Both the position numbers and the translations under genes were made by a program. Shown piece after piece: positions 16,273 through 54,846 of a DNA stretch of 64,000 bases; the first letter of the stretch is position 1; each line of letters begins with the position of its first letter. The DNA lies in the NCBI GenBank assembly GCA_964019425.1, contig OZ025782.1, positions 1,364,001 through 1,428,000 on the forward strand, in the 5' to 3' direction. The notes beneath the pieces were generated by a model. The model saw nothing but the letters and a program-made list of their open reading frames with translations. It was not told the origin of the DNA and searched no databases. Source of the stretch: Flectonema sp. DT1601 (lineage: Eukaryota).

Positions 16273-16305
16273 TCTAGTATATCGATGTGAAAAACTGCTC
16301 TCAGC

Positions 16306-16540: not shown

Positions 16541-16581
16541 TGGTTTCTTTGGCGGAGGCCGATCGTATTTACTGAGGAGGG
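16409..16581 (-). promoter_or_regulatory. 21-bp direct repeat; each copy reads as a pyrimidine tract plus CAG on the coding strand (candidate splice or trans-splice acceptors)
   Basis: GATCGTATTTACTGAGGAGGG at 16409..16429 and 16561..16581 (also 54983..55003 and 55135..55155). The repeat is seen directly; the function is inferred. Confidence 0.4.
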
Positions 16582-17346
16582 AGGAGGGGGGGGGAAATAG
16601 CATTAAAAAAAAAAAATCAACTCTCACTCAACTGACAGACTGTTTCGTTCGACAACAGTGTTTGAGGATATTTCTTATCAGCTCTACATTCTTAGGGCGA
16701 GAAACTGTAATAAATTAATGTTCTATCTCCAAGTGTTCCAATGTTGTAATATCTGTAAGTAAATTATAGATAACAATTATTTTTATTAGATTTCAATACA
16801 AACTTTGGAACTTTGGGCACAAACACCCAAAACGATGGAAACGTACGATTTCAGGAAAACAAAAAAAAAGGGAATAGATGAATCAACGATCTTCTTTACG
16901 AATGAAAGGAAAGAGCATTTTGCCCACGAAATCTTATAGCTGCGTATTTCCGGGATAAAAGAGGGGGAAAAAGATGGGGGAAAACGAACACAACTTCTTC
17001 GATAGATAATAATAATGCATGTCCACAATACCAACACAAGGGAGTTCATCAACCATAAAGCATCATCTGGGGACGTTATGACGTAGCCTGTCAGAATTTT
17101 GCCGACACCGACAGTTGGCTTAGATGACACAACGATGATCTTCAGGTTGAGCGTACCTTCACTCGGATACTGTGATCATCTTCTAATCGATATGAAATTA
17201 TAACCACAAGGACGTCAAAAAGTAAATGAAGGAGGGGGGGGGGGGATTCACAAATGGTCAGATCACTAATTCAGCGATACGACCGGTTTTTAACAACTCA
17301 GCGCAGCTGCATTGCCCATAATAGAACATTGCATTGAACAGAGAGA

Positions 17347-17386
17347 GGGGCCTGGGATGGGAGTAGGGTGGTGGGGGGGAGGAGGG
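17347..17386 (+). other. Potential G-quadruplex-forming sequence
   Basis: GGGG-cct-GGG-at-GGG-agta-GGG-tggt-GGGGGGG-agga-GGG matches the (G3+N1-7)3G3+ pattern. A diverged variant lies at 56223..56262. Confidence 0.55.
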
Positions 17387-17420
17387 TTAACATATTTTTG
17401 TTGTTCTCGTTTTTCGATTC

Positions 17421-17451
<31 letters not shown>

Positions 17452-17565
17452 TAGTTGTTTCGATATTTTGTTGATTTCTTTTTAAGGAATCAACTCACTT
17501 CGTAGACTCTTGGGAGTTAAATAAGAGCTTGTATTCATTTCTTTTTCTGTCGTCTTTTTATGACA

Positions 17566-20500
17566 TCACTTATCGGAATTACGATCCGCGTTAACGTTTC
17601 CGTCATCGTCACGGAGCATGGTCTTGTTTCCATCCTCCATGTCGAAGTCGTCGAACTTCCTGTTCTTGTTCTGCTGATCGAGGGCGGCATTCTCGTTTCT
17701 TGACTTAATTAGTGAATACACCATAAAGGCGATGAGGGCAATAATTAAGATCCACAACACTAAGATAAGTGCAGCTGGAAGGCAGGCCTCACCAAGTTTT
17801 AATCCTTCACAACAAGCTTCTCCGGCATTCGTTTGTGGAGCACCACGGGCTCCCGCATCGTCGTTGAACTCCTCGAGAACTTCTAGCTGACTGATTCTGC
17901 TTCCGGACCTATCATGAGTCTCTACAGGTGCCCATTTCCCTCCATCAAGCGCGTAGCAGAGGGTGTACTCTCCTGAAATCTTAGCCGTCACATTCATCAA
18001 CAGCTCCATGCCGACTTCCGGTTCGAGCATAGGGTTCTTAGCCGCCGCGGCCTGGCAGGTGTCGTGAATAGTAATTTGACTTCCGTCCTCCATACAGTTG
18101 GCAACTGAGGCAGAGCAGTCTAATCCCTTCATTAAAGCGAGTTGCCCCGGCTTCTCTTGAGGGAAGCAACCGTGAACAATGACAGTGAACGGCTCATCCT
18201 TCACCGGTTTATTAGGGTACGCCGTGTACCAGTAAGCTCCACCCGGTGCACACATGCGGAGGCTGCAGTCCACACCTCCCCAACCAGCGTCGCAGGCACA
18301 CATGTTGTTGTTCGTACAGTCTCCCTTTCCACTGCAGGTCGCTTCGCGGTCGCACACTACACAGTTTCCGGCAACCTCTACGAAGTCACACTTATCGCAG
18401 TTCTTTCCAGACATTCCTGGAGGACACTGCTTGCACGCCGCAGGATCGACGCACGAGGTTTCGTTCCACACGCAACCTTCGGCCTCACACACTGTCACGT
18501 TATACGACGGGCAACCTCCCACAACACACTCACTTCCTGTCCATTCACATTTGCCATTTGAACGCACAGTGCAGGTTTCCTCAGTACTCCACTCAGAACA
18601 AGGGAGACTGGTGACACACTTGTTGACATCCCAGGTGCACCAGTTCATCTGGTCACAAGCCGGTTTGCCAGCGGCGTCTTCGCACCCGTCATTCTTTTTG
18701 CACGTCGCTTCTTCCCACTTGCATCCCTGGGCATCATCGCAAGCCATGTTGGAAAGTATCGCGCACCTCGTTCCGCAGAGTGGCTGTGTGACTCCTGCCG
18801 GTAGGGCAGCACCTTCGAACCACTCGCAGTTGTCGTTGTCGGAACAAGTGTTAATCTGTGAGTACTTGAAGCAGCCATCCCCATCCTTACACACTACATT
18901 GGTGGCATCCCACTCGCATCGTAGCGCAGGTGCACGGAGCCTCTGACAGGTTGTGGCGTCCTTATAGATCGGGCAACCAGTTCTGTCCTTGCATGTTGTA
19001 CTAGCTGCGTCCCACTCACACGCCAAGTCGTTGATGCATTTCGGTTCCTTTTCGTAAATTGCGCATCCCTTCGGGTCTTCGCAGCGTGGTGTGGTTCCGT
19101 TGGTACCGTCTACCCAATCACAGCGTGCAGCCTCACATTTCGTGCTCTCCACCCAGATTCCGCAGTCCTTATCGATGCATACCCCGCTTGGTGCCCACGT
19201 GCAGTCCTGTAGCTCACACTCACCCTGTTCTGGATACAAACCGCATCCTTCCACGTCGTCGCAAGTAGAGGTAGCTGTGTTCCATACGCACTCCGCAAGG
19301 TCATCGCATTTTGGCTTCGTTCCAATCACGCCGCACTTCGAGCGCTCTTCGCACAATGGCTTCGCAGCGTTCCAGGAGCACGTGTGGTCAGTGATGCAAG
19401 TTGCTTCATCCTCCAACGCATAGCAACCGACGTTCGGCTTACACAGTGCTGCCGACAACGCGCTCGTCTCCCAGCGGCAAGACTCGGCGTCCGTCGTCGA
19501 CTCACATGCCCCCTGGGTAGTGAATTTGCACACCTGCTTCTGGCAGCTTTGAGCAGTCGCGTCCCAACCGCATCTCTCTGCAGATGGCGCTGCGACACAC
19601 TCATTCTCTTGGCAGAAGGTCGGACACACGCTTCTCACACACTTGTTGGCTGCCCACTTGCACAAGCTGTCTACCTCGCACCCAGCCGCTGTGTCCCATT
19701 CCTTGCAAGATCCCTTGTGCAGTGACTCTCCATGTTTCGATACGTAGTATCCGAACGCCGTCGCCTCATTGCACAACCCTTCAAACACGTTTGCGAGGTC
19801 GGACATTTGGATCGACTGAAAGTGGGAGTCGACTGGCTCTGTCACCATCGACTTTATTGTGTCAGCTGCCGATGTGATCTCTGTGCTCTGTGTGGCGAAC
19901 CTCCTCACCTGGATTCCGAATACGGTTGCTCTCTGTGACTCGAGCCTTCCTCGGGTCGCTGTCATCATGTTCGAATCAGGAATAGCTCCGTCTGCTATTA
20001 CTATCACGACCTTCTTTCTGTCCGCCGGTGAGTCATCAAACATCACACTCGCCATTTCCATCGCCTGAGATGCGTACGAGTCTGCAGAGCTGCTTGCCTT
20101 GAACTGATCTTCGTGCCAGTGGAGGTCATCCGCCAATTCCGCACTCGCTCCGGAGAGTAACCCCTTTGTTCCCTGACTAGTGGTCCTCTTTGCTTCACCA
20201 CGTGCCATAAATTGCGCAAACCCAATCCTGAACCCATATGAGCGTGCAGAAGCCGTAGCCACCCCACTCGCTTCTTTGACAGCGAGAGGCAGTGTATTAA
20301 CCCAATCCAACAGCAGCTCAGTTACTGCGAGGAATCCGTGCGGGTGACGTCCGAACGTCTCAGTCATGCTCGTTGATCCATCCAACAGAATTACGATGTC
20401 GACAGCCGGGCAATTCGCGTATAAAGAAGCGATGCATGTATCGTTCCTCCACATGCAACCGGAAGTCTGTCCGCATGCACACGAGCTGCTGAATCTCTTG

Positions 20501-47500: not shown

Positions 47501-50500
47501 TTCGTCTGGCAACGGAGAGCTTCTCCCTCGTACCAGTCGAGGTCCGCAAGGAGCTGCGTCCTGTCACCAGTCAACTTTCCGCATGTGTCAGCCACAGTCG
47601 GAGTGGTTCCCGTAATGATACTCAGCGATGGGATACCGTCTCCCTTTGTTACCCCGCTATTAGGATTGCATGAGCACGTAGGGCACTGGGCAACCCGAAC
47701 TCCTGTGTCCCACGAGTTGAAGGCCACACGAAGCTTTCCTCCCTTGACGTTCGAGTTGATACCCTTGGTTGAATCCTCGCCGGTCAGGGGAACCTTCTGT
47801 ACCCAGTCCCTCATCACTTCCATCAGAGCATCAAACCCGCTAGGGTGACGACCGAACGTCTTGTCCATCGAGCACGACGCGTCAAACGACACCACCACGT
47901 CGAGGTCAGGGCAGCTCGAGTACTTCTGGTCTACACAAACCGCAGAGCCACTTGATCTGTCAATAATGCAGCGAGGGTCTTCTTTGCACGGACAAATGAA
48001 GTCATTAGGGAACAGGTTGCTGTTGTAGTCACTGCACACCTTGTCAACGCACTTGTTGTTTGCGACGTCCCATCTGCACACCCCTTTTTGGTCACTGTTG
48101 CAGCTGTCCTTGTTTGCGTGCGTGTCAAAGCAGTACTTCTCTGCGCACAACCCACACCCAACAGCGTCCCAATGGCAGTCCGTGTCGCGGTTACACGACA
48201 CCTCGTCAGCGTGCGGGTAGCACTTGGTCTCCGAACATGTCGTACCGTCCCAGTTGCAGGCTGTGTCTGCGAGGCACTCGGCTTGAGTTGTTGTCGTACA
48301 GCGTTTCTTGTGGCACAGCGGGTTCGCACCATCGCCCCACTCACATCTAGGTACATTTAGTTGGTTCTCACAAGAACTCTGATCGGTAAAGAGGCAAACT
48401 TTGTTGATACACGAGTCGCTCACGCAGTCCCAGTCGCACAACCCACTCGGGTCAGCAAGGCACTTTTGCTCATCTTTGATTTCTTTGCAGTCTGGCTTGG
48501 TTGGGTTGCATGTTCCCGTTGGTGCATCCCATTTGCACTTGTCATCGGCGTTGCACGGCCCAGGCGCGAAGTGCTGGCAGTCTTTCGGGTCGCATTCAGC
48601 TGGAACCTTTGTCGTATTCCAATCACACAGGTCATCCTGCACGCAATCCTGCTGAGCTGGATGCTTGCATACTTCACGCTGGCACTTATCCTGGTCCCAG
48701 AAGCATCCAGTAGCTAAATCGCAGTCCGGCTTGAGACAGTGCTTCTCGCATTCCGTCGTTACGCACATTCCACTAGCTGTGTTCCTCGCTCCCGCGGTAC
48801 ACGCCACGGAACCCCCAGCGAGCATGCAGTTCTCACAAACAAACCCAGCAGCCTTCTGTGTTGCTGAAAGCTCTAGACAGTTCAGGTTCAAGCAACCTTC
48901 AGCCGCTGCACATTTCTGGGGAACCACGTCCTGCCAGTCACAAGCCTGATCAGCCCTGCACTCCAGCTTCACTCCCCATTTTGAGCAAGGGACAACAGCT
49001 CCGGTCGCCGGCGGCGGCGTATTTCCTCCCTGGTTCTGGTGCGCTAGGATGGCGGCCCCAAAGCGGCCAGCAGGATCACAGAAGTCCTTAAATACCTCAT
49101 CCAACATGTCGTCCAGTGGAACGTTCACAAAGTGGTCATCGTGCGGGTCCGAAGTGATCGGCTTCAGAGTCTTCTCTGCATCCAAGTCTGCCTTCGTGTG
49201 CGCGGCACTCTTCCTTACAACTACACCGAAGGTGATTACATCCATATTGTCCAAGCTCTGGCGGATAGCTGGGATTTCGCTGCTGCTCTGCGGTTCCTTA
49301 GGGTTCATAGCTCCATCAGTGATGACGATCAGTACGTGTTGTCTGTGTGATGGCGATCCCTGGAATACGTGCACCGCATCCTCCAGTGCTTTTGCCATGT
49401 AAGTAACTGACTTCATGTAGTTCGTCTCGTGCCAGTCGAGGTCGACATTCAGCTCGCTGAGATCTCCACTGAGTTCTCCATCTGTGCATGTACCAGCAGG
49501 GGCAGGAGCGCGGCAACCCCTCGTTCCTAAAGTGCATCCCTGGCCGTTGTTCTTGCACACCCAGTATGCGTCAGTTCTCGAGAATTGTACGAACGCAAGA
49601 CGGAAAGTTCCACCGATAACCGAGGATTGCTGGCCCACCGTGTGATCCTCACCTGTCAACGGAAGGGTCTGCATCCAGTCACGCAGCATCTCTACCATTC
49701 CAAAGTATCCGTGAGGGTGGTTTCCGAATCTCGCACTCATGGAGCCAGATCCGTCCAGCACAAACACCACATCGAGATCTGGGCATGCCGATACGTGCAC
49801 ATCCCTACACTTCGGGTTGGTGGTTGAATCCCAGTAGCAGTCGGGGTTTTTAGTGCAGTCGCAGTTTGTTAGGTCACCGCATCTTGTCTTCTCACAGTAA
49901 GTTCCATTCCCATCGCTTCCTTGCTTACAGTTGGGGTCCGACGAGCACCTTGCATCGACTGTGCTTGCTGGTGGGTACTTTGTGTTGTACGCCACAGTAC
50001 ATTCCGTTGGCTGGCACGATGCAGGCGCCGTGGTGGTGTTCCAGTGGCAGCGTGGGTCATGGTCGCACGCAACGATGTCGTCTCCGAAGCTTGGGCAGTA
50101 ATCCGTCGTGCACGGGGTTGTTCCATCCCACATACAGAGTGGATCCTGGTCGCAGTTATTCTGAGTTGTGTGCACCTTGCACTTATCAACTTCGCATTGC
50201 TGGCTGCGGGTGTTCCACTTACAGTTCTCGCATCCAGCCGCGTCACAAGGTTGCTGAGCAGTATACGTGCACGGTCTCTCTGAGCATGCCCCATTAACCC
50301 ATTCGCAATTCGAGTCGACGCCGCACGTTGCTGTGGTCGTGTATTGACAACGACTGTCGCGGCATTCAGTTGGCAATGAGCAGTTGTACACACACTGCGG
50401 GTCCGCAAGGCAATCCGCCTGCGACTTTCCGTCACATGTTGGGATTTGCAAGCACACAGGCGGGTCAACACCCGTATCCCACAAGCAGTCGGTCTTGTTA

Positions 50501-53500
50501 AGGCACGCATCCTGCACAAATATAGCAGCGCACGGTTTCTTCGAGCAGTCCCTGGTATTGTCATCCCACTGGCACAGTGAGTCCGCGTCTCCTTCGCAGT
50601 TCGTCTTGTCAGTGTGCTCGCATACCTTTCTGGTACATTCTTTCGGTGTTCCCGACCACGAGCATGCGGGGTCCTTGTCACAGCAGTCTTTCTCGCAACA
50701 CTCCTTGCAGTGTGTCGCCGAGCAAGTACCATCAATTGCAGAGACTACTCCAGCACCGCAGATGACCGTTGCCCGTTGCAGCTTACAGTTCGCGCACTGG
50801 TAAATTCCAGCGTATTGGCTCGGCACAGCCCGACAGTTCAATTCAGGACACCCGGTTGGTGAGTCGCACTTGCTGAGCTTCGGCTGTTTCCATTCGCAGT
50901 ATTTATCGGCGTTACACTCGTCCTTGAATCCCCAAGTTGCACACGGGAAGTGCGTGCTGTCAACAGGTGGGATGAGAGACTTTCCGATCGGGCTCGATGG
51001 GTCGCAGAATACATTCAGCAGTTGGCTCGGGATCTCGTCCAGCTGCAGGTTCAAGAAGTGGTCATCCTTCGGATCCGTAACCAAAGGTTTCAATCTCAGT
51101 TCTGCATAGTCATCCTGATAAGTGCGTCCAGTAAATCTGCGCATCACTACACCAAACACAATAACATTCTCTTTGCGGAGGTCCTGTTGAGCCTTGTCGA
51201 GCATACCAGGGTAGGTTGGCTGCCACAACTGATCACATCCGAAAGGACACTGATTGCACGAATTTCTAGCGCTGCATGCGTCTCCGTTGATATCGGTTAA
51301 CCCACCGTCGGCGATAATAACCACAATATGCTTTCTGTGAGGTGGTGAGTTTTGAGGCAAGAAGGTGTGATCGGCAACATCTTGCAAGGCGTCGTGGATG
51401 TAGGTCCATTGACGCTGGTAGTTCGCCTCGTGCCAGTCGATATCCCCCATCAGCTCCTGCAGGTTACCAGACAGCATACCGTCAGTGCACTGACCGATCG
51501 CGCAGTTAGTTGGATGGTCTTCATCAGGACGTGCGTTCGCCTTTGAGAACTGGATGAAGGTAATACGAAACGTTCCACCTGTCACTGCCGAGTTCTGTCT
51601 TACAGTATGGTCCTCGCCCGTCAGCGGTAGGGTCTTCACCCAGTCGCGAAGCATTTCCAGAAGGGCAGTGTATCCGTGCGCATGGCGCCCGAATGATCTC
51701 CACATCGATCCTGAACCGTCAATTACAAAGGCAACATCCAGGTCTGGGCATTGGGACAACGAAGGGATCGCACAGTGCGGGTTGTTTGGGTCTGCCACCC
51801 ACGTGCAGTCCGGATCTTCGTTACACTTGCACTCATCCTTCGGGTTGTTATATTTGTCACACGTTTTAACAGCGCAGTACGCAGGGTTCGCGTTCGTTTG
51901 CCACATACACTTGTCATCGTTCTGGCACGCCGGCTGCGTTGGGTACCCTCCACATGGTGTCTGTGTGCATACTGGCGGCGTACCTGTCGTGTCCCAGTGG
52001 CACGCGGTATCTGCGTTACACGAACCGGCGTCAGGGTGCTTCACACATGGCCTTTCCACGCACTTGTCGAGTGCGGTGTCCCATTGGCACTTAGTATCGG
52101 CATTGCAAGTTGTGTCACTAACGTATTGGCAGATTTTCTCCGCGCAGTACTCAACCAACGTCGATGGCGGGCCAGGTGGTGGAGGGGTCTGCACAGGAAC
52201 CCACTCGCATCCGTCCTCAGCATTACAGTCTCCTTCTTTTGTGTGAAGACACTTCTTTGGGTAGCATTTCGGGGTCTTGCTAGGATCATACTCACACACA
52301 CTGAGGAAGCAGTAATCTGGATCTCCTGCAGGAGGATTGCACGGAGCTCCCATTTCGACCGCTACTGCTTCACATGGTTGTTCGTTCTCGTGTACGCGGC
52401 AAGGATCATCGATACATTTGTTTGTTGCCCACATTGCGTTCCACAAGCAGTCTTTATCAGTTTTGCATTGTGCTTCATCTTTACCACTGCACCCTGGTTG
52501 CTCGCGCTTACAGTCGCCATTATCCCACAAGCATCCCGGATGAGCCTTACAGTCAGTCTCTGAACACAACGGGTAACAGTCTGATTGAGTGCATGATGGC
52601 GTAATTGAAGCATCCCACTTGCAGTTCAGGTCCGCCATGCAGTCCGTCTCACTCCCTTTCGGTGCACACCCGCTCGGTACAGTCACAGTCCCAGCAGCGA
52701 TTCCCCTTCCAAAAACGCTTGTAGAGTCGCAAATCTGATCCAGTACCTGTTCCTTGAAGTGGTCGAGGTCAACGTTGAGGAAGTGATCATCCTGTGGGTC
52801 AGACACCAGCGGCTTTAGCTTCGCTTCCGCCTGAAGATCTTGGCGTGTGTGCCCAGTCGCCTTCCTCACAACCACACCGAAGATTTGCGCGTCATGGTCG
52901 TTCTTTAACTTGTCCTCTATCGTACGAATGTCGCTGTCCCGGTCATGTAGCGCACCGTCAGTAATGATCATCACAATCTTCTTTCTCGCCTGGCCGCTAT
53001 TCTGAAAGGTGTCATATGCCACTTGCAATGCCGGAGCTAAAATCGTCTTGCCCTGACTCCACCTCCTGCAGAAGAAGTTCTCGTGGAAGGTTACGTCGTT
53101 CGAAAGGCTGGCGTAGTTTCCAGACAATGCAGCTCCCTGAGTTGTTCCCGCAACTGCGACCCACGGTTTACAGTTTACGAATCCCGCAGGCGCAGGTGGA
53201 GAGTTTTGCGCGGTCTGCGCTTCACCAGGCTTACCAAACTGCACCAACGAGGCACGAATACCGTACGTCGAGGTCGACGATGGCGCCAACTCAGCAGTGT
53301 GCAGAAAGTCTCTCATTTCCTCCATCATTCCGTAAAACCCGACTGCATGTGATCCAAACCTGGCGTCCATCGAACCTGATCCGTCAAGCAAGAATGAGAT
53401 GTCGACAGGTGGACACTGCACATTAGGATCAACACAATGGTTGTTTGCTGAATCCCAAATACAGTCCGGCGAGGCAGCTAAACAGTCGCACTTGTCGCTG

Positions 53501-54846
53501 ATGTCACCGCACACGCGCTTTTGGCACTCAGCCCCAGCTGGATTGTTAGCATTCCAATAACAAGGTCCCAAATTATCAGCGTTGCACGCATCTCTAGCCT
53601 TGTTAGTCGACGGGCAGTATGCATCAACGCACACTGCTGGAGACTTCGTCAGGTCCCAGTCACAAAGCAAGTCCGCTTCGCAGTTTCCTTCGTTGTCGTG
53701 AGCGTGGCATCCGTCTTCTACACATGTCGCAGGGTTTTGGCTGTCGTCCCACTTGCAGGATCCGGCCGGCTGGTGTCCCTCACACGCACCAATGTTATTA
53801 TACACATGACATCCGGCGATCAACACCTGCGTTCCGTACACGTCATCCGGGTTCATACAGAGGTCTCCAACTCCTCCCCATTCGCAAACGAATCCCTTGA
53901 TGTTGTCGTGTCCGTTTGGGTAGTCGTTCCACGTACCATCTGCGTAGTAGTGCCCGTAGTCTTCTCCAGTAGTAGCACAGGTTCCCGCACACGGTCTGGA
54001 CCATTCGTTCGGTTCACCAGATCTCCAGTTGGTAAACGCTCCATTGGCTATCCGAAATCCAGAACCTCTTCCGGTTCCGATCAGCATACCCTTACCACAG
54101 TCTGCTCCAGTGCACGGTGTCTTCGACTCAGGAAGTGGATATCCGAGGTCGCACGCAGAACGCTGTGGCCCAGTCACCGCTGTATTGTATGGAGGGCAAC
54201 CTTCTGGACCTGTCAGCCATCTCCATTCTCCTTCCTTAGCTACGTCACCACTTCCAATCCATCCCTGACCGTGAAGCTTTTCCGAGGCGATCTTTTCTTC
54301 CTGCGCATCAGTAATTGTGATCAGGTAACCTACCAGACCAAGGATGTCTTGGCTTTTCGAAGCGCACTCGGCTTGACCCTGGTCCCAATGACACTTTCCA
54401 GCGTTCCCCTGCGCATCCACACATCTTGAGTTGTACTCGTAAAAGTGTCCTGTTGCAGTTGAATACATCGCATGACCAAAGTTGTACGTGACACGGCGGG
54501 AAGCCCCATTTCCCGAAGATGTCTTGAATTCGATCGATGCCAAGGCCGCTGCATATTGGGAGATTGTCGCGGTCCCTGAAAGAGTCATGATACCCGTATC
54601 AGCATCAAAGTTAGCAGTAATAGGACTAGTGCAGGCAGTGCATTTTAAGGTGTCGGCTCCCTTAACATACCCTTCCTCGATGTCCATCACAGCTCCCGAT
54701 ATGGTTGTGCTGCAGTCGCATGCCCCGGACGTGAATGTGATTTGGTTGCAATCAACATCCGGAAACGCAGTCATTGCAACGCCCTGTTCATACTTCAGGC
54801 CGCTGCTGGCTCCTAAGATCCCTAACAACAGAACGAGTTGCCTCAT
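17566..54846 (-). CDS. Giant (12,426 aa) type I membrane adhesin-like protein with 19 vWA domains, 3 C-type lectin cassettes, 14 cbEGF-like repeats, many Cys-rich CxW repeats, EGF, TM and short tail (complete copy B)
   Basis: Single uninterrupted 37,281-bp ORF from ATG (54846) to TGA (17566-17568). Hydrophobic N-terminus, repeated DGSGS MIDAS motifs, EPN/WND lectin motifs and a C-terminal hydrophobic helix. Flanked by AT-rich, homopolymer-rich non-coding DNA. Confidence 0.95.
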   Translation of the reverse strand: MRQLVLLLGILGASSGLKYEQGVAMTAFPDVDCNQITFTSGACDCSTTISGAVMDIEEGYVKGADTLKCTACTSPITANFDADTGIMTLSGTATISQYAAALASIEFKTSSGNGASRRVTYNFGHAMYSTATGHFYEYNSRCVDAQGNAGKCHWDQGQAECASKSQDILGLVGYLITITDAQEEKIASEKLHGQGWIGSGDVAKEGEWRWLTGPEGCPPYNTAVTGPQRSACDLGYPLPESKTPCTGADCGKGMLIGTGRGSGFRIANGAFTNWRSGEPNEWSRPCAGTCATTGEDYGHYYADGTWNDYPNGHDNIKGFVCEWGGVGDLCMNPDDVYGTQVLIAGCHVYNNIGACEGHQPAGSCKWDDSQNPATCVEDGCHAHDNEGNCEADLLCDWDLTKSPAVCVDAYCPSTNKARDACNADNLGPCYWNANNPAGAECQKRVCGDISDKCDCLAASPDCIWDSANNHCVDPNVQCPPVDISFLLDGSGSMDARFGSHAVGFYGMMEEMRDFLHTAELAPSSTSTYGIRASLVQFGKPGEAQTAQNSPPAPAGFVNCKPWVAVAGTTQGAALSGNYASLSNDVTFHENFFCRRWSQGKTILAPALQVAYDTFQNSGQARKKIVMIITDGALHDRDSDIRTIEDKLKNDHDAQIFGVVVRKATGHTRQDLQAEAKLKPLVSDPQDDHFLNVDLDHFKEQVLDQICDSTSVFGRGIAAGTVTVPSGCAPKGSETDCMADLNCKWDASITPSCTQSDCYPLCSETDCKAHPGCLWDNGDCKREQPGCSGKDEAQCKTDKDCLWNAMWATNKCIDDPCRVHENEQPCEAVAVEMGAPCNPPAGDPDYCFLSVCEYDPSKTPKCYPKKCLHTKEGDCNAEDGCEWVPVQTPPPPGPPSTLVEYCAEKICQYVSDTTCNADTKCQWDTALDKCVERPCVKHPDAGSCNADTACHWDTTGTPPVCTQTPCGGYPTQPACQNDDKCMWQTNANPAYCAVKTCDKYNNPKDECKCNEDPDCTWVADPNNPHCAIPSLSQCPDLDVAFVIDGSGSMWRSFGRHAHGYTALLEMLRDWVKTLPLTGEDHTVRQNSAVTGGTFRITFIQFSKANARPDEDHPTNCAIGQCTDGMLSGNLQELMGDIDWHEANYQRQWTYIHDALQDVADHTFLPQNSPPHRKHIVVIIADGGLTDINGDACSARNSCNQCPFGCDQLWQPTYPGMLDKAQQDLRKENVIVFGVVMRRFTGRTYQDDYAELRLKPLVTDPKDDHFLNLQLDEIPSQLLNVFCDPSSPIGKSLIPPVDSTHFPCATWGFKDECNADKYCEWKQPKLSKCDSPTGCPELNCRAVPSQYAGIYQCANCKLQRATVICGAGVVSAIDGTCSATHCKECCEKDCCDKDPACSWSGTPKECTRKVCEHTDKTNCEGDADSLCQWDDNTRDCSKKPCAAIFVQDACLNKTDCLWDTGVDPPVCLQIPTCDGKSQADCLADPQCVYNCSLPTECRDSRCQYTTTATCGVDSNCEWVNGACSERPCTYTAQQPCDAAGCENCKWNTRSQQCEVDKCKVHTTQNNCDQDPLCMWDGTTPCTTDYCPSFGDDIVACDHDPRCHWNTTTAPASCQPTECTVAYNTKYPPASTVDARCSSDPNCKQGSDGNGTYCEKTRCGDLTNCDCTKNPDCYWDSTTNPKCRDVHVSACPDLDVVFVLDGSGSMSARFGNHPHGYFGMVEMLRDWMQTLPLTGEDHTVGQQSSVIGGTFRLAFVQFSRTDAYWVCKNNGQGCTLGTRGCRAPAPAGTCTDGELSGDLSELNVDLDWHETNYMKSVTYMAKALEDAVHVFQGSPSHRQHVLIVITDGAMNPKEPQSSSEIPAIRQSLDNMDVITFGVVVRKSAAHTKADLDAEKTLKPITSDPHDDHFVNVPLDDMLDEVFKDFCDPAGRFGAAILAHQNQGGNTPPPATGAVVPCSKWGVKLECRADQACDWQDVVPQKCAAAEGCLNLNCLELSATQKAAGFVCENCMLAGGSVACTAGARNTASGMCVTTECEKHCLKPDCDLATGCFWDQDKCQREVCKHPAQQDCVQDDLCDWNTTKVPAECDPKDCQHFAPGPCNADDKCKWDAPTGTCNPTKPDCKEIKDEQKCLADPSGLCDWDCVSDSCINKVCLFTDQSSCENQLNVPRCEWGDGANPLCHKKRCTTTTQAECLADTACNWDGTTCSETKCYPHADEVSCNRDTDCHWDAVGCGLCAEKYCFDTHANKDSCNSDQKGVCRWDVANNKCVDKVCSDYNSNLFPNDFICPCKEDPRCIIDRSSGSAVCVDQKYSSCPDLDVVVSFDASCSMDKTFGRHPSGFDALMEVMRDWVQKVPLTGEDSTKGINSNVKGGKLRVAFNSWDTGVRVAQCPTCSCNPNSGVTKGDGIPSLSIITGTTPTVADTCGKLTGDRTQLLADLDWYEGEALRCQTKVKEAEEWAGEIFKESPASRQKVLLIITDGRIMDKDELGPAGQVLAAEGVKVFGILLRRQATATTRDLANLATLKEIVSTPKATHALSLQVDEALSIMDGFCDPNSPFGTYITQGSSSQVTSCSQIGALASCDSEKTCKWNSISLKCEDHPCFSNCNENNCTNDPNNKCLWNTNGDTCEKAVCTDYQNQLDCKANNCQWDQAKNPACFEPECDATTEDACVNLGEKCMWDTSLQPPDCVKTPCYYNKTECVADPDCQWDDVCSDPVDQKCVPKRCILDSHKTQAGCQADIFCVWSQQLTCEPAPCVNYPDEKCCDHDDSCHWDVSQAPAVCKQKYCPSTYPSAAHLDPCNADGLCMWNSTTNECVDKVCNKMEECACKEDPDCFWSGVKCADKKYGECPVMDIILLLDGSGSMSRNFGRHPHGFFALVEILRDWVKTLPLTGEPAASPTPGGPVTGGVRLGFVQFSGKNRGWPWPWSSGRSNAIETSGNTGTGGHLSGLEREINDDLDWHENNYLGKGTMIQLGLEMVGDMFDRSHKVSSRKRILIIITDGRIYDPDVLSPARQVLDQEQVQTFGIVVRRQSGHTKADTDAEKTLKPITSDPHDDHFQNLQIDEIASQVFADICDPNGVWGHLIVTSTNAPGQSGVHKPCDHYTDTHECTQDSGCVWDAASAACADSPCTAHCHNPECTADTLNLCVWNTTTGDCWKTTECAYTTKAECQKSPEKCVWDDVKKCEKEKCTPNTNLQDCLDDPDTCEWINVNGKDQCVEKKCQYPDQNTCKTDPNCDWSADACNGTAQSCKEILCTHTTAGDCTADSRCSWDATGVVGICKENLCAKYLDERCCDHKDACKWDITVTPPVCGDKKCPKIDNKNTCNNDTDCLWDDTNNKCTDLDCSKYPTRCPCDKNSKCYWKPGAGLNGQGQCVAIEFGECPTIDIAVIIDGSGSMSSTFGSHPHGFYALVEMLRDWVTKLPLNGEDATVGLNSAPNNAGVRVAFVQFSGKNYRRSEAKAASGSGTTNGRLSGVLGELDADLDFHENNYYKKGTMIEKALTMAGDIFHGSPVDGRQRVLFIFTDGRIFDEQSLAPARAELDREGVQTFGIVVRKRDQHTKADLDAEKTLKPITSDPHDDHFQNLMIDDIPDLIGSICDPNGPWGHLIVKDPPKPTTGVHHPCPDYVTETPCEQDAGCVWSDVGGLCVNSPCLLHCLEPDCRNDKGNNCTWDSQNATCSKAEDPTCPCKFDTTDAKYNEQQCNADVRCTWESNKCIYDECKTKGAGCTGVGQSCTDPNKEPCSPDDYVCECIPPSTVFPAGTPPSQQPAECRLDECVASCPTCANDTCTALGQTCNDPNPTMTHHSDWTCTCPPPSTGKATAAAADCKLDECVVDCRTCGKCTDGQTCFDPNKGATATSDWMCVCPPPSNNTQVTGQANCSIDECTLHKDICTNVGQQCVDPNPLQQGDWKCECLPPTNGTMTAGPAVCLLDECEKDCPTCEKDVCKGAPTGEQKCNDPDKTATSTGDWTCECIPPMTGVGVVAPAHCKLDECIKVCPTCANDTCSSQNQTCHDPNHDATSLSDWVCKCPPPATDIAVAAAATPCEDDECHDPNNEKVCTAAGQVCVDDDKKTRGTWECECIVPPAVAAMRGQQVPAQCEYPGECATSNDAKMKCTDLGFVCDDPNPMVAGDWVCMCAPPATGTNVTLGTPTDCVLDECVVTCPTCAQTDTSSTNVCSAEGQRCVDNNQSHTDLGDWTCECIPPQVGTPAVAAPAKCQLDECVAVCPTCAQTQQGGPSTCTAAGQTCEDPDRSVDSTSDWTCTCVNPGRGVATAKLADCVCDECRNNTICLVAGQTCYDAKKTCPPEDDFKCECPPPTSGVMTASAATCTVDECVENEATCKQVGQTCRDQNTTKLNDWECLCPPPSVGIAITQQAKCVLDECVQTCPTCAGTTCSDVGQECEDPNMTPQSTNDWLCKCQPPSTNVATGKPAKCEEDECDTNGFKCTADCRAGSLNCQQTCFDPNTTVSSKDDWRCVCPPPSSDFAIAKAAECTNDPCKHDNEQTCLADPEGCEWKDLPTPGCTRKPCLHDKQSDCAADPVCDWATGSGKAGNLANQLSFEKDVPVKPFDGLACETPGSWKNGCSCATTIGSNVLPGAIVDIEDGYYNNGKDTLTCVACKALGLTAEWHAQSGMLSISSGTAADLAKAIASIEFSTSADNTGKRRITWNYGHGFFSSHTGHYYHFFPKSTCPGGACKWSEAQDQCALGSNKILGLLGYLITITSETEDEVARKKLEGQGWMGATDRHQESTWSWVTGPEGLAGGCVYTPTTSSCDIQNEAGLPFGQGTAGNFVLRVDAATGKNMYANWAGAEPNNWSGPCPGSCATDGEDYAHFLSPSGEWNDYPGDHHHIDGYICEWGGVGEMCVAVGDATGVTDLVPGVCVEKVCVNDTETDCKANPKCEWLGGNVEPCVVAPCVENPNEKECDKDPVCHWDVTVSPSLCKEKVCNKNKDPTTCSAKDDCVWDDGANRCVDKECDPFDRCDCKAEPRCFWDTSSGAGKCVESRYGQCPTLDVVLLVDGSGSMSQNFGRHPNGFYAMMEMIRDWVKTLPLTGESHQVGINSTAPNGGMRMGVIQFSGIPISGGTAIDKAAIRTPIGVGSFGSLTGKLTELQADIDYHEANYLQAGTYINQGLGWAGDMFRASPVGRKRVLIIITDGAIKDDDKLSAARATLNQESVEVFGVVLRRQATHTAVDTAAEEKLKPITSDPHDDHFENLIIDELPATVLNGLCDPNSKWGALLMPGAAAQNQSGVHKPCPQYVDQVLCTADPGCLYSSVGLECVDSPCVQHCNQTQCTADTLNDCFWNASVVGLEGCWKNPLCSYQDAATCEKDPKCDWNQTKTDCEERICNQPTEAECDLDPKGCEWDGLQQTCVEKPCKQTNASACNSDVLCEWDACDGVTDGAQCIKKRCVAAPGNPALTEQDCNADQHCEWQSNACALKLCTHHSDERCCDKDPKCHWDLSLTPSQCSIKHCARMNQNKPACDTDPLCTFNDSSTECVDKECKNLDRCDCLAETKCFWNSLAPKQFCTETKFGQCPTLDLVLLLDGSGSMSATFGRHPHGFYGLMEMLRDWIKTLPLNGEKANVGLNSAPNTGEVRVGLIQFSGKNKRGASAGRADAKGTPAGTGTGGSLSGDFDELSTDVDWHEANFYSRGTMIQKGLQMAADVFHQSPNDGRQRVLIIITDGRIYDPEQLQAARSELDTEKVQVFGVVVRKNTQHTKADLDAENTLKPITSNPHDAHFQNLQIDEIPDKVLGDICDPNGVFGSLVLGQAAQQGAGAANPASGGVHQPCPQHLQQVGCLADPGCVWFDNSLSCGDSPCLHHCEEQNCTADAANGCAWTNGTICLREPKTGCDIYTGKPTECEAQKDCQVDKNGSTCIDKKCNRDNEQGCLADPDDCVWNNLNQKCTEPPCKETDEGKCVASQDGCVWQTTIPLNSTVSAYARGQPMVPFPTLTCTVSGTCSCSDTVKGAAVDVEEGYVKGKDVLACDQCAALGFEAEWHDIPGVLYLKSKTPKTLTEYAAALATVTFTTTSDAGSPRTITWNYGHGFLSTVTGHYYHYFSKSECLNVDPTATECHWGQAQAECESADNMILGLTGYLITITSDEEDRVAKLKLEGQGWMGAADLKDEGQWGWVVGPEGLESGCTYAAQKSGCDLSSQVGLLIGSGTGGSFAVATNSKTGKPMYTNWEAGEPNNYRGACPGSCAASGENYAHFRWPSGEWNDFPGDHQRIDGYICEWGGVGQLCVNPEDASGHVEITAGTCVEEKCKAGRKDPCVADPYCEWKDNTTECVQKKCTEYMTEIQCDKIEDCHWNPSISPAMCVEKPCAKLQDVATCEADSDCAWDKDRSKCIDKDCNKLDKCDCVDDEKCYWKVEQAPQGSCRKVTYGECPTLDVVMILDGSGSMSRNFGRHPHGFYALMEMVRDWVKTLPLSGEKAVVGINSAAGTEKLRVALVQFSGHPEFLVPSSNIVNSVAFPPVGVGAGGRLTGDLSELSDDVDWHEANYLEAGTYIEKAMVRAGSIFKTSSPVDGRKRVLIIITDGKIQDDDKLAQVVKDLEGMDVQTFGIVVRRTDQLTASDVAAEDSLKPITSDPHDDHFLNLLIDQIPDQALNGICDPNGPWGHLIVDQAATQAQQAGVHRPCPNYDNKIPCSADMGCIWSDVLIACLDSPCVKHCTENQCANSTDCRWNTTVLECFNKEVCPGILDSNACNQNDKCSWNATTNECIDTPCLHPDESSCIADSTFKCTWDTVNGTCTQTPCQAVDKTNCNQEPGCEWNEACGDASCEAIPCQHAEETECSKDVLCKWSQQSCSRRLCAVYPDEKCCNQKDGCHWDVQQAPAVCAQLPCRKFDDNVACDAERECMWKNNKCLEKDCGEFEKCDCDADPDCFFTTANGGSHCTFQRYATCPTLDVVLLLDGGASMSRAFGRHPHGFYALVEVVRDWAATLPLSGEAAGATTMPQTKAIRLAMVQFAGSTQWPSSDEKQALSSPSGTGTGGRLSGVLSEVKADADFHEGSFMGASATAQPDVRQTYLLGALQKAVSLFQTSPFDGRKRVLIIVSDGELNDKDSYTAARAALDQAQVHVFGIAVRPFGTVSADDVKTQETLLGALSDPKDQHLQSLQIDEVASALKGLCDPNHVWGKFIADSSVACTLYSSKDPCNKDDGCVWFDRTLSCGDSPCLAHCLDTNCTADQENHCVWNQTLGACRKEEICDHADTTDCENDKKCQVDPVDRQTCIGKICDHDNQQGCLADPKGPCLWDEISKTCDKQPCVYFEPVFCNNDTECTWNNDANLCEPIRCRWTQQVDCEEKDDNACEWKNNTCTFKPCKHHPDEKTCGEDDLCTWGTDCEVKYCRRYGEQGSCDQDGACMWLNDTCVDKNCGEFEVCRCRKDGDCYWDKGTCKESKFGECPTLDIVLLVDGSGSMSQSFGVHPHGFYGLMEMLKTWTSSLTLSGVPAGGSPSLDGKARVGFVQFSGIPTNKLPNGNVDGAQTSPAQVGASGRLTGLKAELDSELTWQEANYMQGGTYIASALDTAADMFKESPGSLRKKVLLIFTDGAILDDKILQPARGRLETAGVVTFGIVVRRFLAHTKLDLLAEETLKPITSQPQVDHYLNLLLSEIPEALDGLCDPNSLWGKYVVDQSQAGVHKPCQNYVDKTKCDSDPGCLYQEVLTACVDTPCIRHCLETECNNDQSNHCNWNSQEQVCYKKEICPHTNLQDCNQDPMCAWNQTVCGEKPCLHPDENSCLADTEFDCTWETGTQNCVLTPCQHTDESSCNAAGCEWDQCPGSSADDACVERLCVATAETACTADSRCDWNSGSCSAKPCVLYPGEKCCNSFDGCHWDVQQSPAVCAQLPCRKFDQNGCEGEDECMWESGKCIEKDCGKMDKCRCEGDADCFYAKSADSHCTFQRYGTCPTLDVVLLLDGGASMSRAFGRHPNGFYALVEVVKDWAATLPLSKNAAGQTPLADTKTVRLAMVQFAGSSKWLPGDARQATFSPKGTGSAGSLTGSLAEINDDAKYHMQAFLGASVVTQPATQQTYLLAGLEKAVSLFRSSPVDGRRKVLIIVTDGELVDKDAYGQAMAELDQAQVRIFGAVIRPFSTRTAVDLKAEETLKQIVTAPRAAHFQNILVDELAAALNGICEPGHVWGRYVADVSDEVLPCPTVAEKDPCNKQSHCVWFDETLSCGDSPCLKHCKEANCTADWPNQCLWEGGACMKEEVCNFPTARCEKEDKCEVAKDGTTCIGKKCEHDNEQGCLADPDPCEWNNLAQTCGNRPCTYDTIPTCEQDLNCTWNTDAKYCELKKCSPYLNKEDCLQKPTTPGLCEWVKQIAGGELCETAPCKQYSSEKECNGDVICEWDTSIAPGICNEKYCRRHCTKKGCNKATCDADAKCLTEGNSCVTKVCEKLSSDPCACHNDPDCFWIPSEQACVDTRYGTCPTLDLVVLFDGSGSMSKAFGRHPHGYFAEVEMLKTWVQGLPLSGQAAGTTSTVNRKTRVAFVQFSGVPQDSGSPVTGPIPGSALKTPSNVGTAGRLSGDATELLADLSWHEANYMGQGTYIRAGLDMAVGIFQDSPLDGRKRALFIITDGAIQDKNLLASAQAKLSSQQVEVFGIVVRRFATHTQLDSDAEEVLKPITSDPHVDHFKNVDMDELADENGPLTKMCDPATGWGSALALQPVGGEHQPCRKYEGKTSCMSDVGCVWSETLLGCVNSPCVVHCSEAACNGDLTNGCVGGWNDQEKTCYREEVCGGDNIVACESEEGCEWNATASDCSEKRCHHTTEGSCLADTETTCLWKDPATCVVMPCVNYRSQDVCQQDTENSCKWTGDNTCVQTKCAYTTEVECRVDALCDWQTSNQTCTVRPCVEYTEDKSCDADRRCHWDTSTSPGSCQLKRCAKYSDQPMCEADSGCLWENDVCVEKTCHKIPERCDCQQDPTCFWSNTGGRGRCEEQAYGKCPTLDVALVLDGSGSMSQSFGRHPHGFYAMMEMIRDWVKTLPLSGEDSTVGSKSVPSGGVRVGFVQFSGLAGSTGPTGGVVNSAQRTPPGVGTNGRLSGDLTQLQADIEWHEDNYMKQLTFIEEGLVMASNMFAQDSPVDGRRKIIIIITDGVLMDGDKLSGVKSTLKQQQVLVFGIAVRRFSARTQEDIDAEAALKPVVSAPADEHFLSLMLDEVPTEVLTGLCDPASKWGKFVAGTGSGSIGLPSGAVPCDQFPSKGVCNQEKACAWGDSAQVCGNTPCFQHCNSTQCNGDVGNHCEWNATESVCWKSKLCAHANEGDCKQDNECVWKNDTCVEKPCVHDDEDACLADPEGCTFDSLQQICSPEPCKTLKTNDDCNTMSEICEWDTHGLICKPRRCVSCGSNSTCCVEDENNKQWCEMNTTANVCQEKPCVGHADEITCHEDLVCEWDAAVAPGKCKERFCSRYGDATSCNNEPACHWDFSTCSEKKCGDYAKDSTDTDKVHCACNSNPECFWHDNVCVDVHYGACPTMDIVVLFDGSRSMAESFGRHPRGYAALLEMIRDWSLLLPLANDYGRADRNGTDYAKGLTRIAFIQFSGNENRKVNGVVKGSSLSAPTGKGRAAGRLSGYLPELTGDLDWQEKNFMGEGTFLAESFDIAAGLLSKAPNDGRKKVLMVIIDSKIEDSDQTSLAKSKLDAMGIHTVGIVIRKHHLHETSDLEAESSLKPLVTEPQETHFANYMIDELQDNVFEKWCNPSTPWGTWLVDLKTTDSHLPCDFHHNSAECNRDSGCQWDDSLVRCANTPCLQLCSEDLCTSADKDLLCKYDANDHSCGKTKVCAATNSNDCGLDPACWWPKDRCEPRPCKHITEVACISDTEDECHWVQDKCTLKKCSYTTSQDCLADTECTWDQVASVCSEKPCQHVVMDICVGDKQCKWENAKCIERPCAKYLDESSCHTNVACTWNVDSSPAYCTETYCARWTQQNDCDGDVACAWDSQQDSCMESRCDRFNGKQCECQEESGCFWSSASDECVTSLFGACPPLDVAIVFDGSGSMSQAFGRHPHGYEALTTFLKDWVKKLPLNGDSYTAKENTKATGMRVGFVQFSTPGAPRTTAGFAGTANGLLSGSLSELEKDIVYHNKNQMAGRTFVQGALEHAVEIFRASPSTRKRVLILITDGKLNDADRLKAARGSLDALSVQTFGVVIRRLNTRTQEDIDAEFALKPIVSLPTDNHFLNLKLDDLVTEVFDAICDPAKKFGALIAKREGAEHQPCAVHASAGVCLADTWCVWSESLLGCVNSPCLSFGCNENNCTAATDDFCGWDGKSCSRQPVCPTHATETPCVADTENGCQWDGSSCQEKKCNHKSEDSCSTDPVGCEWDTHDMVCTKTDCTYTNESACTQATAESCSWKAEEKLCVKDRCNSQTCETNAWCCECATHADEVTCNHDDKCHWSVDESPSICKVKYCSKFTEQGSCSTDPELKCGWDSSMNKCIDKNCTKITMPCPCNKDLGCFWDGSKNECVTGQFGGCPLMDIVIAIDSTTSMQGAFSRHPNGYYAMVEKIRDWVKSIPLSGTPGKMFRDSPTQGVRVGVVQFAAEAGAIKSPNKVGSEGHVTGDLSELLIDLDFHEKNIVGTDRAYIKSALDLTKGMLATVTRKRVLLVLTDSELKDAATTATVQNLRTLLGMQVKTFGILLRPTVAFDSASSNAREELKSITTTVQDEHFEDATIDELDSILWALCDPHKQFGALIAKSATGSSSASIPCPMHLEKNACDVDLSCRWSDRLLSCADSGCVTHCDETTCTEDHANLCAWKDDSCFKQPICSYTDVSECSVDPGCDWNANEAKCEKKKCQHESESGCVEDLVGCEWQSDRDACVVRPCTYTSQDACNVDAACTWDSNIRGMMAFAPCVEIPCQATSQTECLQDAKRCEWKTETSKCVPLKCTPHPDEKTCDHDDACHWNTDNSPPGCSQKYCSKHTQVPCEADAEKCKWSGNACVELKCSDLKDGCGCKAVDRCTWDAKRSACLEGTFGGCPVMDIAVVFDGSGSMSQTFGRHPHGFYAMVEQLRDWVKTLPLSLEQAGTTTANAGGLRVGFIQFSAPKSAIRAPAGTGTGGRFSGVVAELSADLDYHEQSYAMESTYISQALDFAANLFQGSPAGRRKVLLIVTDGKIHDAAELGSARAALGGQGVEVFGVVLRRFDAHSQIDLEAEAVLSSIVSEPKADHYVNIPLDDFSSEVLVDICNPNSKFGKVILNYQELEGHHLPCGAFSTERACYGEAACDWNATSLVCEWSTCHTECSEAKCSAAGCVWDTAFGECGRVVECSATTKAACEMMQYSNEACRWYDDDSVCRLPPCTATTEDNCLADPFGCQFDEEAADQDKCTEKKCNAPDQTACEQKSICQWDDVISSCVEKPCVPYTTQAICDKHSYDCTWEGNACTPKECVPHTNERVCAGDDNCEWKTAHSPAHCGVKVCRVNKDKTSCDATDECVWDTNKNTCDEGVTQCKRFSSSCACGQTSGCMWRNDTCIASLYANCPAVDIVILLDGSTSMTETFGRHPHGFLAVTELLLDWVNTLPLAVKEASGVATASARSYGFRIGFAQFMARGEAKRTTSQGTKGLLSGASAELADDLHWHEDQFKASSSADSYASQAMEMASVMFDDSPADRKKVVIVIADGAIPDSNMMTATRGRLESQRATVFGIQVRRFATQSTEITSAADTIKSMVTEPVDSHFQSIQMSDLANVFEGLCNEATAFGYYVSKHGESLHKGSCKEWDTAAGCEVDSLCKWAANKCVRSVCPTFCQENECVAAPSAERCGWDATAQSCQKQVCKFTTQGACESTTDAESCRWETSALSAALCKPNVGCYALEDEATCITDHTCSWNAAKPLCEERSKCGVIGTKPKCDDLAECVWNTATSTCDDVEGCGLYPEQGECELQDCTWAPSGVCIDKDCGIWVESTKCEAARCDWVDGTNGTTPRCEDPKGCAIYEKEPKCINDLACEWDAASTTCKDRTGCPIYKDATTCQRLRAPALRCEWDATNVVCKDGDGCFKYSQINTCSDNDNCEWFEGAALPAGVTQPLCGTRCAILSNMACDDAQGCKWEEATCKKNDGCEDAAGKPACDQMNWCTWDVNKCVTSLPCSEWSTEETCTVRSNGKCEWTGSECVVGGCPSYNVTVCEAEGCVWNETSCVDPAACKQCPPGMSGKNCDKCDFVEVAGNCVVCDREATCSGKGDCTNNNMCACDAGWGGVDCSLRMCAPGGAYWYTAYPNKPVKDEPFTVIVHGCFPQEKPGQLALMKGLDCSASVANCMEDGSQITIHDTCQAAAAKNPMLEPEVGMELLMNVTAKISGEYTLCYALDGGKWAPVETHDRSGSRISQLEVLEEFNDDAGARGAPQTNAGEACCEGLKLGEACLPAALILVLWILIIALIAFMVYSLIKSRNENAALDQQNKNRKFDDFDMEDGNKTMLRDDDGNVNADRNSDK
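17707..17775 (-). other. Single transmembrane helix followed by a 46-aa acidic cytoplasmic tail (copy C: 56584..56652)
   Basis: AALILVLWILIIALIAFMVYSLI followed by KSR (positive-inside rule), then a D/N-rich tail to the stop. Confidence 0.9.
18265..18336 (-). other. Tenascin-type EGF-like domain
   Basis: CSGKGDCTNNNMCACDAGWGGVDC matches CSGxGxC...CxCxxGWxGxxC. Confidence 0.8.
18440..19710 (-). repeat. Membrane-proximal run of short (about 25-30 aa) Cys-rich CxW repeats with no vWA domain
   Basis: Repeating C...C....CxW...C units, e.g. GCYALEDEATCITDHTCSWNAAKPLC and GCAIYEKEPKCINDLACEWDAASTTC. Boundaries are approximate. Confidence 0.8.
36076..37068 (-). other. Ig/cadherin-like plus C-type lectin cassette 3
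   Basis: GYLITITSD...GWMGAAD...WGWVVGPEG...YTNWEAGEPNNY...WNDF...GYICEWGG. Confidence 0.85.
40216..41223 (-). other. Ig/cadherin-like plus C-type lectin cassette 2 (copy A: 1642..2649)
   Basis: GYLITITSE...GWMGATD...WSWVTGPEG...YANWAGAEPNNW...GEDYAHF...WNDY...GYICEWGG. Confidence 0.85.
41380..43713 (-). repeat. 14 tandem calcium-binding-EGF-like repeats of about 55 aa (copy A: 2806..5139)
   Basis: Consensus CxxDEC...C...GQxCxDP(N/D)...DWxCxCxPP...AxC, which resembles the cbEGF pattern DEC...CxD/N...aromatic-xCxC. Confidence 0.7.
53812..54798 (-). other. Ig/cadherin-like plus C-type lectin cassette 1, at the N-terminus (copy A: 15238..16224)
   Basis: GYLITIT...GWIG...EGEWRWLTGPEG...NWRSGEPN (EPN at 54007-54015)...WND (53923-53931)...FVCEWGG. 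Confidence 0.85.
54799..54846 (-). other. Predicted signal peptide MRQLVLLLGILGASSG (copy A: 16225..16272)
   Basis: Basic n-region, hydrophobic core LVLLLGILG and small residues (S-S-G) at the likely cleavage site. Confidence 0.8.

Follow-up and report, generated by a model that had tools for sequence, protein, structure and literature searches.

A megadalton vWA and C-type lectin membrane protein encoded in tandem in Flectonema sp. DT1601, a candidate capture receptor of diplonemids

Members of the mannose receptor family combine CysR and FNII modules with 8-10 tandem C-type lectin-like domains (CTLDs), and receptors of the mannose receptor and megalin types end in a short tail with an aromatic sorting motif. 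The gliding adhesins TRAP and CTRP have an ectodomain of vWA and TSR modules (six vWA domains in CTRP) and an acidic tail with a subterminal tryptophan. Here we analyse a window of 64,000 nucleotides (nt) from Flectonema sp. DT1601 (assembly GCA_964019425.1, contig OZ025782.1, positions 1,364,001 to 1,428,000), in which the middle gene of a tandem array, copy B, encodes a protein of 12,426 amino acids (aa) and 1.35 MDa with 8.3% cysteine. This protein is a real, very large and so far undescribed variant of a known protein kind. We propose, with chances that we regard as evenly balanced, that it is a multivalent capture receptor, which may hold on to food particles or polymers and bring them into the endo-lysosomal system.

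Type I topology and several Ca-dependent C-type lectin domains liken the protein to the mannose receptor MRC1 and Endo180, and structural matches include mannose receptor CTLDs and Endo180. Megalin (LRP2) resembles it in size and logic, the Flectonema protein being about 2.7 times as long. We regard these receptors as analogues and not homologues. CysR, FNII, LDLa and YWTD modules are lacking, and the protein instead has 19 vWA domains, lineage-specific CxW and EGF-like arrays and lectins set in a prokaryote-type beta domain. Membership in the mannose receptor family was rejected, given no such Pfam domains and three dispersed lectins, and TRAP/CTRP membership was rejected with no TSP_1 Pfam match and no tryptophan in the tail. 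What the protein has in common with vWA adhesion proteins (integrin I domains, vWF A3, collagen VI and matrilin, TRAP/CTRP, nematode 'clec' proteins) is the vWA fold with its metal ion-dependent adhesion site (MIDAS). It differs from them in having no TSR, collagen or integrin beta-propeller modules, and in number, with 19 vWA domains against six in CTRP. Pairing of vWA with a C-type lectin is also seen in nematode vWA+CTL 'clec' clusters (Atlas score 0.81, a lead only).

An earlier note, made from the sequence alone, had described the gene as a single open reading frame (ORF), and we indeed found one uninterrupted frame of 12,426 codons with one stop on the minus strand, from 54846 to 17566. 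From the N-terminus, the product contains a signal peptide, lectin cassette 1, vWA 1-6 with CxW spacers, 14 EGF-like repeats and cassette 2, then two vWA domains, cassette 3, eleven vWA domains, a CxW array, one EGF repeat, a juxtamembrane domain, a transmembrane (TM) helix and a tail (Table 1). The hydrophobic N-terminus (aa 1-16) and the single TM helix (aa 12358-12376), which precedes a 50-residue tail, were called from hydropathy only, and both agree with that note, as do the three cassettes, the count of 14 EGF-like repeats and the abundance of CxW motifs (172 in the protein, 23 +/- 5 in 200 shuffles). Two of its statements did not hold. N-glycosylation sequons are not enriched (68, compared with 70 +/- 8 in shuffles), and the EGF-like repeats gave no support for the cbEGF type of fibrillin or Notch, whose consensus is D/N-x-D/N-E/Q-C plus C-x-D/N-x4-Y/F-x-C: a Pfam scan of aa 3700-4500 returned no family up to E 5, EGF_CA included, and none of the 14 repeats fits these patterns. 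Neither an RGD motif nor a furin-type site was found in the copy B protein, the absence of the latter being expected by chance, and an NCBIfam scan of eight proteins gave nothing meaningful. The disulfide-rich CxW and EGF-like arrays would serve as a long spacer, by a rough estimate several hundred nm if extended.

All 19 vWA modules of the earlier description were recovered by motif, and Pfam VWA matched in each third of the protein at E 1e-57 to 1e-72. The modules are 212-251 aa long with 26-66% mutual identity. Modelling of single modules with AlphaFold, which the same note had suggested, returned a vWA fold for vWA7 and a C-type lectin fold for cassette 1. The AlphaFold2 model of vWA7, the only vWA domain folded, had a predicted local distance difference test score (pLDDT) of 93, and its top Foldseek matches, at 14-19% identity, were vWF A3 (E 7e-10), integrin I domains and SpaC. 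The vWA domains of copy B differ from solved ones by additional loops and by an FGRHPHG signature past the MIDAS. Fifteen of the 19 domains have the canonical five-residue MIDAS (DxSxS...T...D), while vWA 10 and 12 read DGS, vWA 17 has DTS with A for T, and vWA 19 has S for T. Judging from the chemistry of the family, these sites would bind acidic residues with Mg2+/Mn2+. The domains vWA 10 (33451-34140) and vWA 12 (30430-31119) have a common DGGAS variant of the MIDAS and an insertion and are 62% identical, which points to a duplication of two domains within the gene; in Rhynchopus there is a single domain of this type.

The model of cassette 1 (pLDDT 92.6) showed a C-type lectin fold (VIA Z 15.3, root-mean-square deviation 1.8, 122 residues; Foldseek E 1e-5), with the lectin predicted to be inserted ahead of the last strand of a beta-rich domain. 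In the structure comparisons, whose match lists were filled by the lectin, this beta domain received no match of its own. Pfam Lectin_C matches on the cassettes were weak (E 2e-4 to 2e-3). The ligands of Ca site 2 (EPN, the following E, and WND) are kept in all three cassettes, and the Ca-site motif residues are invariant or near-invariant over 33 aligned cassette rows. By analogy with known EPN/WND lectins, the cassettes may bind mannose-, fucose- or GlcNAc-type sugars with Ca2+. Whereas an inner disulfide flanks the WND strand in animal-type CTLDs, the cassette lectin (EDY-x-H...WNDYP) has the outer cysteine pair without the inner one, and its prokaryotic relatives likewise lack the inner cysteines.

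These relatives were sought among word-sharing candidates of 182-2,000 aa. Prokaryotic or prokaryote-type proteins made up 27 of the 30 matches among longer proteins and 6 of the 15 among near-length proteins, as well as all relatives found outside the euglenozoan-type matches. In addition, 27 loci belong to Bacteroidota, Myxococcota, Bacillota, Actinomycetota, Pseudomonadota and archaea. The ~330-aa cassette is homologous end to end, at 26-37% identity, to prokaryotic surface proteins (Bacteroidota proteins associated with the type IX secretion system (T9SS) or gliding, and proteins of Myxococcota, Bacillota, Actinomycetota and Halorubrum), with the common blocks TGH.Y, GYL.TIT, GQGW.GA.D, WVTGPE, GEPN, EDY.H, WNDYP and GY..E[YW]GG. 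The prokaryotic hosts do not have the vWA-CxW arrays of the copy B protein, and the eukaryotic cassettes differ by many added cysteines and by their place on a separate side of the tree. In an unrooted tree of 111 rows (after removal of 17 near-duplicates), which names no donor, the prokaryotic rows lie on one side of a branch with a Shimodaira-Hasegawa-like approximate likelihood-ratio test (SH-aLRT) value of 86; diplonemids received 100/100 in an unrooted 44-row tree. The wide prokaryotic and narrow eukaryotic spread favours transfer of the cassette from prokaryotes to eukaryotes, which is the simplest reading of these sequence data. In the available main text of a bioRxiv preprint on diplonemid gene transfer (10.64898/2026.01.29.702485) the word 'lectin' is absent, and no NCBIfam model for the prokaryotic module matched in three relatives scanned. 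A Halorubrum protein (L001:1474-2286) has the full cassette of beta domain and C-type lectin, with EPN/WND intact.

A search of proteins of 5,500-17,500 aa gave 15 matches among 538 candidates. Twelve of them have eukaryotic modules, the longest being 6,545 aa, and the named giants come from Rhynchopus euleeides, Flectonema neradi and a Hemistasia-labelled transcript. A vWA profile search retrieved 550 representatives at E 0.001 and 77 at 1e-30; ten members were looked up, and the seven with names are all diplonemid. As far as sequence matching can assign them, all named eukaryotic relatives of the copy B protein are diplonemid. A transcript product of F. neradi shows 83% identity to aa 3583-4763, every gap being shorter than 8 residues, and the protein P0098 matches the last 2,330 aa at 75% identity. 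From R. euleeides, two transcript products (6,530 and 6,951 aa) can be aligned from aa 4563 through the tail.

Members of the family combine the same modules in many orders. In P0001, each of vWA 1-10 has its best match in the corresponding domain of the window protein (10 of 10), and the vWA domains of P0090 (6/6), P0089 (8/8) and P0098 (4/4) also follow its order. P0094 of Namystynia (Hemistasiidae) has the layout E15-W-BL-W-V...TM (BL, cassette), in which the half from the EGF array to the TM helix is in copy B order. Because vWA domains hold their positions across Diplonemidae and Hemistasiidae, the giant layout is older than the split of these two diplonemid families. The earlier statement that no known protein has this architecture is therefore right in that we found no described one, but the layout is not unique, given colinear orthologues in other diplonemids. 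Full-text searches, which covered literature outside subscription journals, found no description of the family. The available part of the genome paper supplement lists members only as hypothetical, and NCBI labels one of them 'Halomucin'.

A further class consists of ~2,700-aa proteins (full size range 2,633-2,760 aa). Eight representatives (2,633-2,720 aa, 31-42% mutual identity) have the layout cassette-W-V-W-V-W-cassette-TM, and their alignments to the window protein reach E 1e-97 or lower. Single-frame genes for such proteins occur at five metagenome loci, one of which holds a tandem pair (L030:2-4015 and 4499-12673 on one contig); on another (L028:151-3409), the gene follows, on the same strand and in single frames, a Prp3-domain gene and an unknown ORF. 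Two loci start with a spliced-leader end, which indicates whole trans-spliced mRNAs: L032 contains the 17-mer given as the prokinetoplastid leader in the available part of one source (PMC7859406), and L029 contains the conserved 3' leader part given for T. brucei in that of another (PMC11613528). Rfam gave no leader match on three loci. These mRNAs are probably of kinetoplastid origin, and the class thus probably extends the family to free-living kinetoplastids.

In Bodo saltans, the available part of a supplement (PMC4728078) lists Bsal_88760 as one gene of a 17-gene cluster under trypanosomatid gene losses. This 'membrane-associated protein' cluster (ORTHOMCL169; Bsal_88760 and 16 others) is multi-copy, has adjacent gene numbers in a free-living euglenozoan and was lost in trypanosomatids, and the 2,654 aa of Bsal_88760 agree with the 2,633-2,760-aa BL-W-V-W-V-W-BL class. 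From size, copy number and annotation, its identity with the ~2,700-aa class is probable. The bodonins of the same organism have about seven TM helices and a Ser/Thr/Asn-rich ectodomain (PMC4728078); a bodonin identity of the copy B protein, which has one TM helix and is cysteine-rich, was ruled out. A wider history can be offered tentatively, and we think it possible but not probable: a feeding-receptor family of the diplonemid-kinetoplastid ancestor may have taken up a prokaryotic lectin cassette, grown into megadalton tandem arrays in diplonemids and been lost in trypanosomatids when phagotrophy was given up, with the copy B protein as the largest member found.

At the column of a YxxΦ-type aromatic motif, eight distinct tails have YxxΦ in four cases (Rhynchopus, Namystynia, P. 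papillatum and P0092), FxxF in two (the window protein and P0098) and no motif in two. In the available part of S1 Data of a P. papillatum study by localisation of organelle proteins by isotope tagging (LOPIT; PMC12697944), at least four entries have B. saltans BSAL_88760 as best match. Among the four listed, two are predicted as 'multivesicular body' (MVB), a cluster rich in V-ATPases and lysosomal membrane parts, and both are enriched in nutrient-poorer medium; one of them has a signal peptide, 7 VWA domains and a TM helix and matches the 2,654-aa BSAL_88760 repeatedly. The other two have class unknown, one leaning to the multivesicular cluster and one to the glycosome, and none of the four is listed in the cell-membrane cluster (PMC12697944). 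Two P. papillatum family members have already been detected by mass spectrometry. One, DIPPA_12261 (a member by vWA profile), correlates at r 0.90-0.91 with two MVB rows and at 0.37 with a tagged cell-membrane protein (7 rows).

The motif in orthologue tails, the LOPIT location of likely relatives and the probable Bodo cluster lost with phagotrophy are three indirect lines that favour uptake over static adhesion. If the protein is a capture receptor, then a 1.35-MDa single-pass molecule, encoded by at least three tandem gene copies, would grip food particles or polymers via many weak metal-dependent sites, the tail motif would recruit a clathrin adaptor, the gripped material would be carried into the endo-lysosomal system, and the low vacuolar pH would release the ligand. 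The earlier proposal of a protist membrane protein binding both proteins and glycans in a multivalent manner stands as to folds (predicted with high confidence), largely intact binding motifs and diplonemid relatives, binding itself being a prediction. Its long surface filament fares less well: a receptor that is taken into the endo-lysosomal system is somewhat better supported than a static filament.

A static or gliding adhesin, which, like apicomplexan TRAP/CTRP, would stay on the plasma or flagellar membrane and serve to anchor the cell on surfaces, on the walls of algae or on hosts, seems doubtful to us, and we rank the capture receptor ahead of it. Type I topology, vWA domains and a short acidic tail do resemble the TRAP family, yet the tail lacks the subterminal tryptophan that is a TRAP hallmark, and orthologue tails retain a sorting-type motif. 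The closest prokaryotic relatives of the cassette are T9SS- or gliding-motility-associated surface proteins, and the vWA7 model, as far as a predicted structure can tell, also matches the pilus adhesin SpaC. Classic diplonemids glide, attach and live as epibionts according to the available part of a review (PMC8061765); the BSAL_88760-matching entries listed, on the other hand, include none in the cell-membrane cluster.

Several points weigh against a capture receptor. The function is predicted from sequence, models and likely relatives, and copy B itself has F, not Y, at the motif column. That the LOPIT entries and BSAL_88760 belong to the family is likely from annotation, size and copy number. 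DIPPA_09731, the second P. papillatum member, was detected only in low-speed fractions and correlates with the MVB rows at only r 0.71-0.79 (7 rows), and neither it nor DIPPA_12261 has a row among the listed entries of the available prediction table. The correlation rests on 7 rows, low-speed pelleting is common to many organelles, and any surface receptor also passes endosomes. The available part of the review states that bacterivory is uncommon in diplonemids and that most are eukaryovores (PMC8061765), so the prey glycan is not fixed. Finally, binding motifs have decayed in relatives: about 4 of 11 vWA domains of Rhynchopus P0007 retain DxSxS, none does in the ~2,700-aa class where readable, and the cassettes of P0024 and P0001 have lost EPN/WND. 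Part of the family may therefore be structural.

Such decay would suit a structural lining or matrix, that is, a protease-resistant, disulfide-rich scaffold whose domains would mainly cross-link and space, and which would form a coat in the cytopharynx, the food vacuole, the lysosome or some secretory organelle. The 8.3% cysteine fits this idea, several gene copies suit a high-dosage product, and co-fractionation with MVB or lysosomal material in the available data is also consistent with it. We nonetheless consider it unlikely for copy B, in which 15 of 19 MIDAS sets and all three lectin Ca sites are intact, where sequons occur at chance level, unlike in a glycan shield, and whose position-specific vWA conservation suggests distinct ligands.

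The window contains at least three head-to-tail gene copies, which are 99.98-100% identical and of which the earlier note had recognised only the middle one. Copy A differs from copy B by 3 substitutions in 16,272 nt (two synonymous, one T>I), and copy C by none in 7,558 coding nt. The array exits both window ends and is thus longer than 64 kb, and with complete flanking copies it would exceed 110 kb; it would raise gene dosage. The two spacers differ by indels, one of ~290 bases, and both forms are present in contigs of the sequencing run X1, which may be the source sample; this makes a simple duplication in assembly less likely. Genes clustered on one strand, with spacers rich in A and pyrimidines, agree with the polycistronic organisation that the available part of a source (PMC10161547) reports for Diplonema papillatum. 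Some X1 contigs that match parts of the spacers continue into other sequence, so spacer pieces recur elsewhere, as a dispersed repeat or in further paralogue spacers.

We also asked how far the array or the giant product could be artefactual, the array being a mis-assembled single locus or the 37-kb ORF never yielding a single product (through cleavage, or through reading in smaller units). The near-identity of the copies would agree with this, as would the length of the longest transcript-derived relative found (6,951 aa) and the X1 coverage, in which scattered contigs cover the gene and none bridges a whole junction. Against it stand the indels between the spacers with both forms in X1, the synonymous nature of two of the three coding differences, alignments of relatives in which gaps stay below 8 residues (the F. 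neradi transcript over aa 3583-4763, P0098 over aa 10090-12422), and an unbroken frame with conserved domain order, which is not chance. We judge such an artefact very improbable.

Table 1. Features of the 64,000-nt window, in window positions
Feature	Position	Strand	Basis
Copy A (downstream), first 5,424 codons, runs past window edge	1..16272	-	
Spacer B-to-A, 1,293 nt, short variant; poly(A) and pyrimidine-rich tracts	16273..17565	-	
Copy B, complete 12,426-aa ORF, type I membrane protein	17566..54846	-	
50-aa cytoplasmic tail; F-D-D-F at column of orthologues' YxxΦ	17569..17718	-	
Transmembrane helix, aa 12358-12376	17719..17775	-	hydropathy
Juxtamembrane domain, no Pfam family, conserved in orthologues	17812..18258	-	
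Single teneurin/EGF_2-like repeat	18259..18351	-	weak Pfam match, E 0.003
Membrane-proximal CxW repeat array	18352..19764	-	
vWA 9-19 with CxW spacers; MIDAS altered in 10, 12, 17, 19	19765..35691	-	
Lectin cassette 3	36079..37056	-	
vWA 7-8 with CxW spacer	37576..39831	-	
Lectin cassette 2	40219..41181	-	
14 EGF-like repeats (DEC...C-x-D...W-x-C-x-C); cbEGF identity not supported	41380..43710	-	
vWA 1-6 and intervening CxW (PSI/Paramecium-SA-like) repeat arrays	44056..53415	-	
Lectin cassette 1: beta-rich domain with inserted C-type lectin (EPN/WND), prokaryote-type module	53812..54798	-	
Signal peptide, aa 1-16, predicted	54799..54846	-	hydropathy
Spacer C-to-B, 1,596 nt, long variant, ~290 extra bases	54847..56442	-	
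Copy C (upstream), last 2,518 codons, runs past window edge	56443..64000	-	

Diplonemid diet and prey recognition are an open question. In the P. papillatum proteome paper, digestion at the surface and then uptake via the cytopharynx are proposed and, in its available part, no receptor is named (PMC12697944). The present family supplies a definite candidate, open to tagging and knock-down in P. papillatum, and if it does descend from an ancestral feeding receptor, it would offer molecular access to prey recognition in a protist group that ranks among the most diverse of the ocean, and a possible marker of phagotrophy loss in trypanosomatids. The locus also shows a eukaryote with several near-identical 37-kb single-frame genes in tandem, and a lectin module common to this family and prokaryotic adhesins.

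Other members of the family show further architectures. A sister subfamily (P0002-P0006, P0008-P0012) has 53-67 EGF-like repeats and 0-4 vWA domains; one of its clusters has 11 members, several of them near-identical and paired on contigs of equal length; these pairs suggest further tandem arrays. DIPPA_09731 (P0091) of P. papillatum is 5,132 aa long and has ~21 short W-V units and low cysteine, with no TM helix found in it. P0114 and P0120 combine a CAP (cysteine-rich secretory) domain at the N-terminus with V-BL close to the membrane, and P0129 has a C-terminal trefoil domain.

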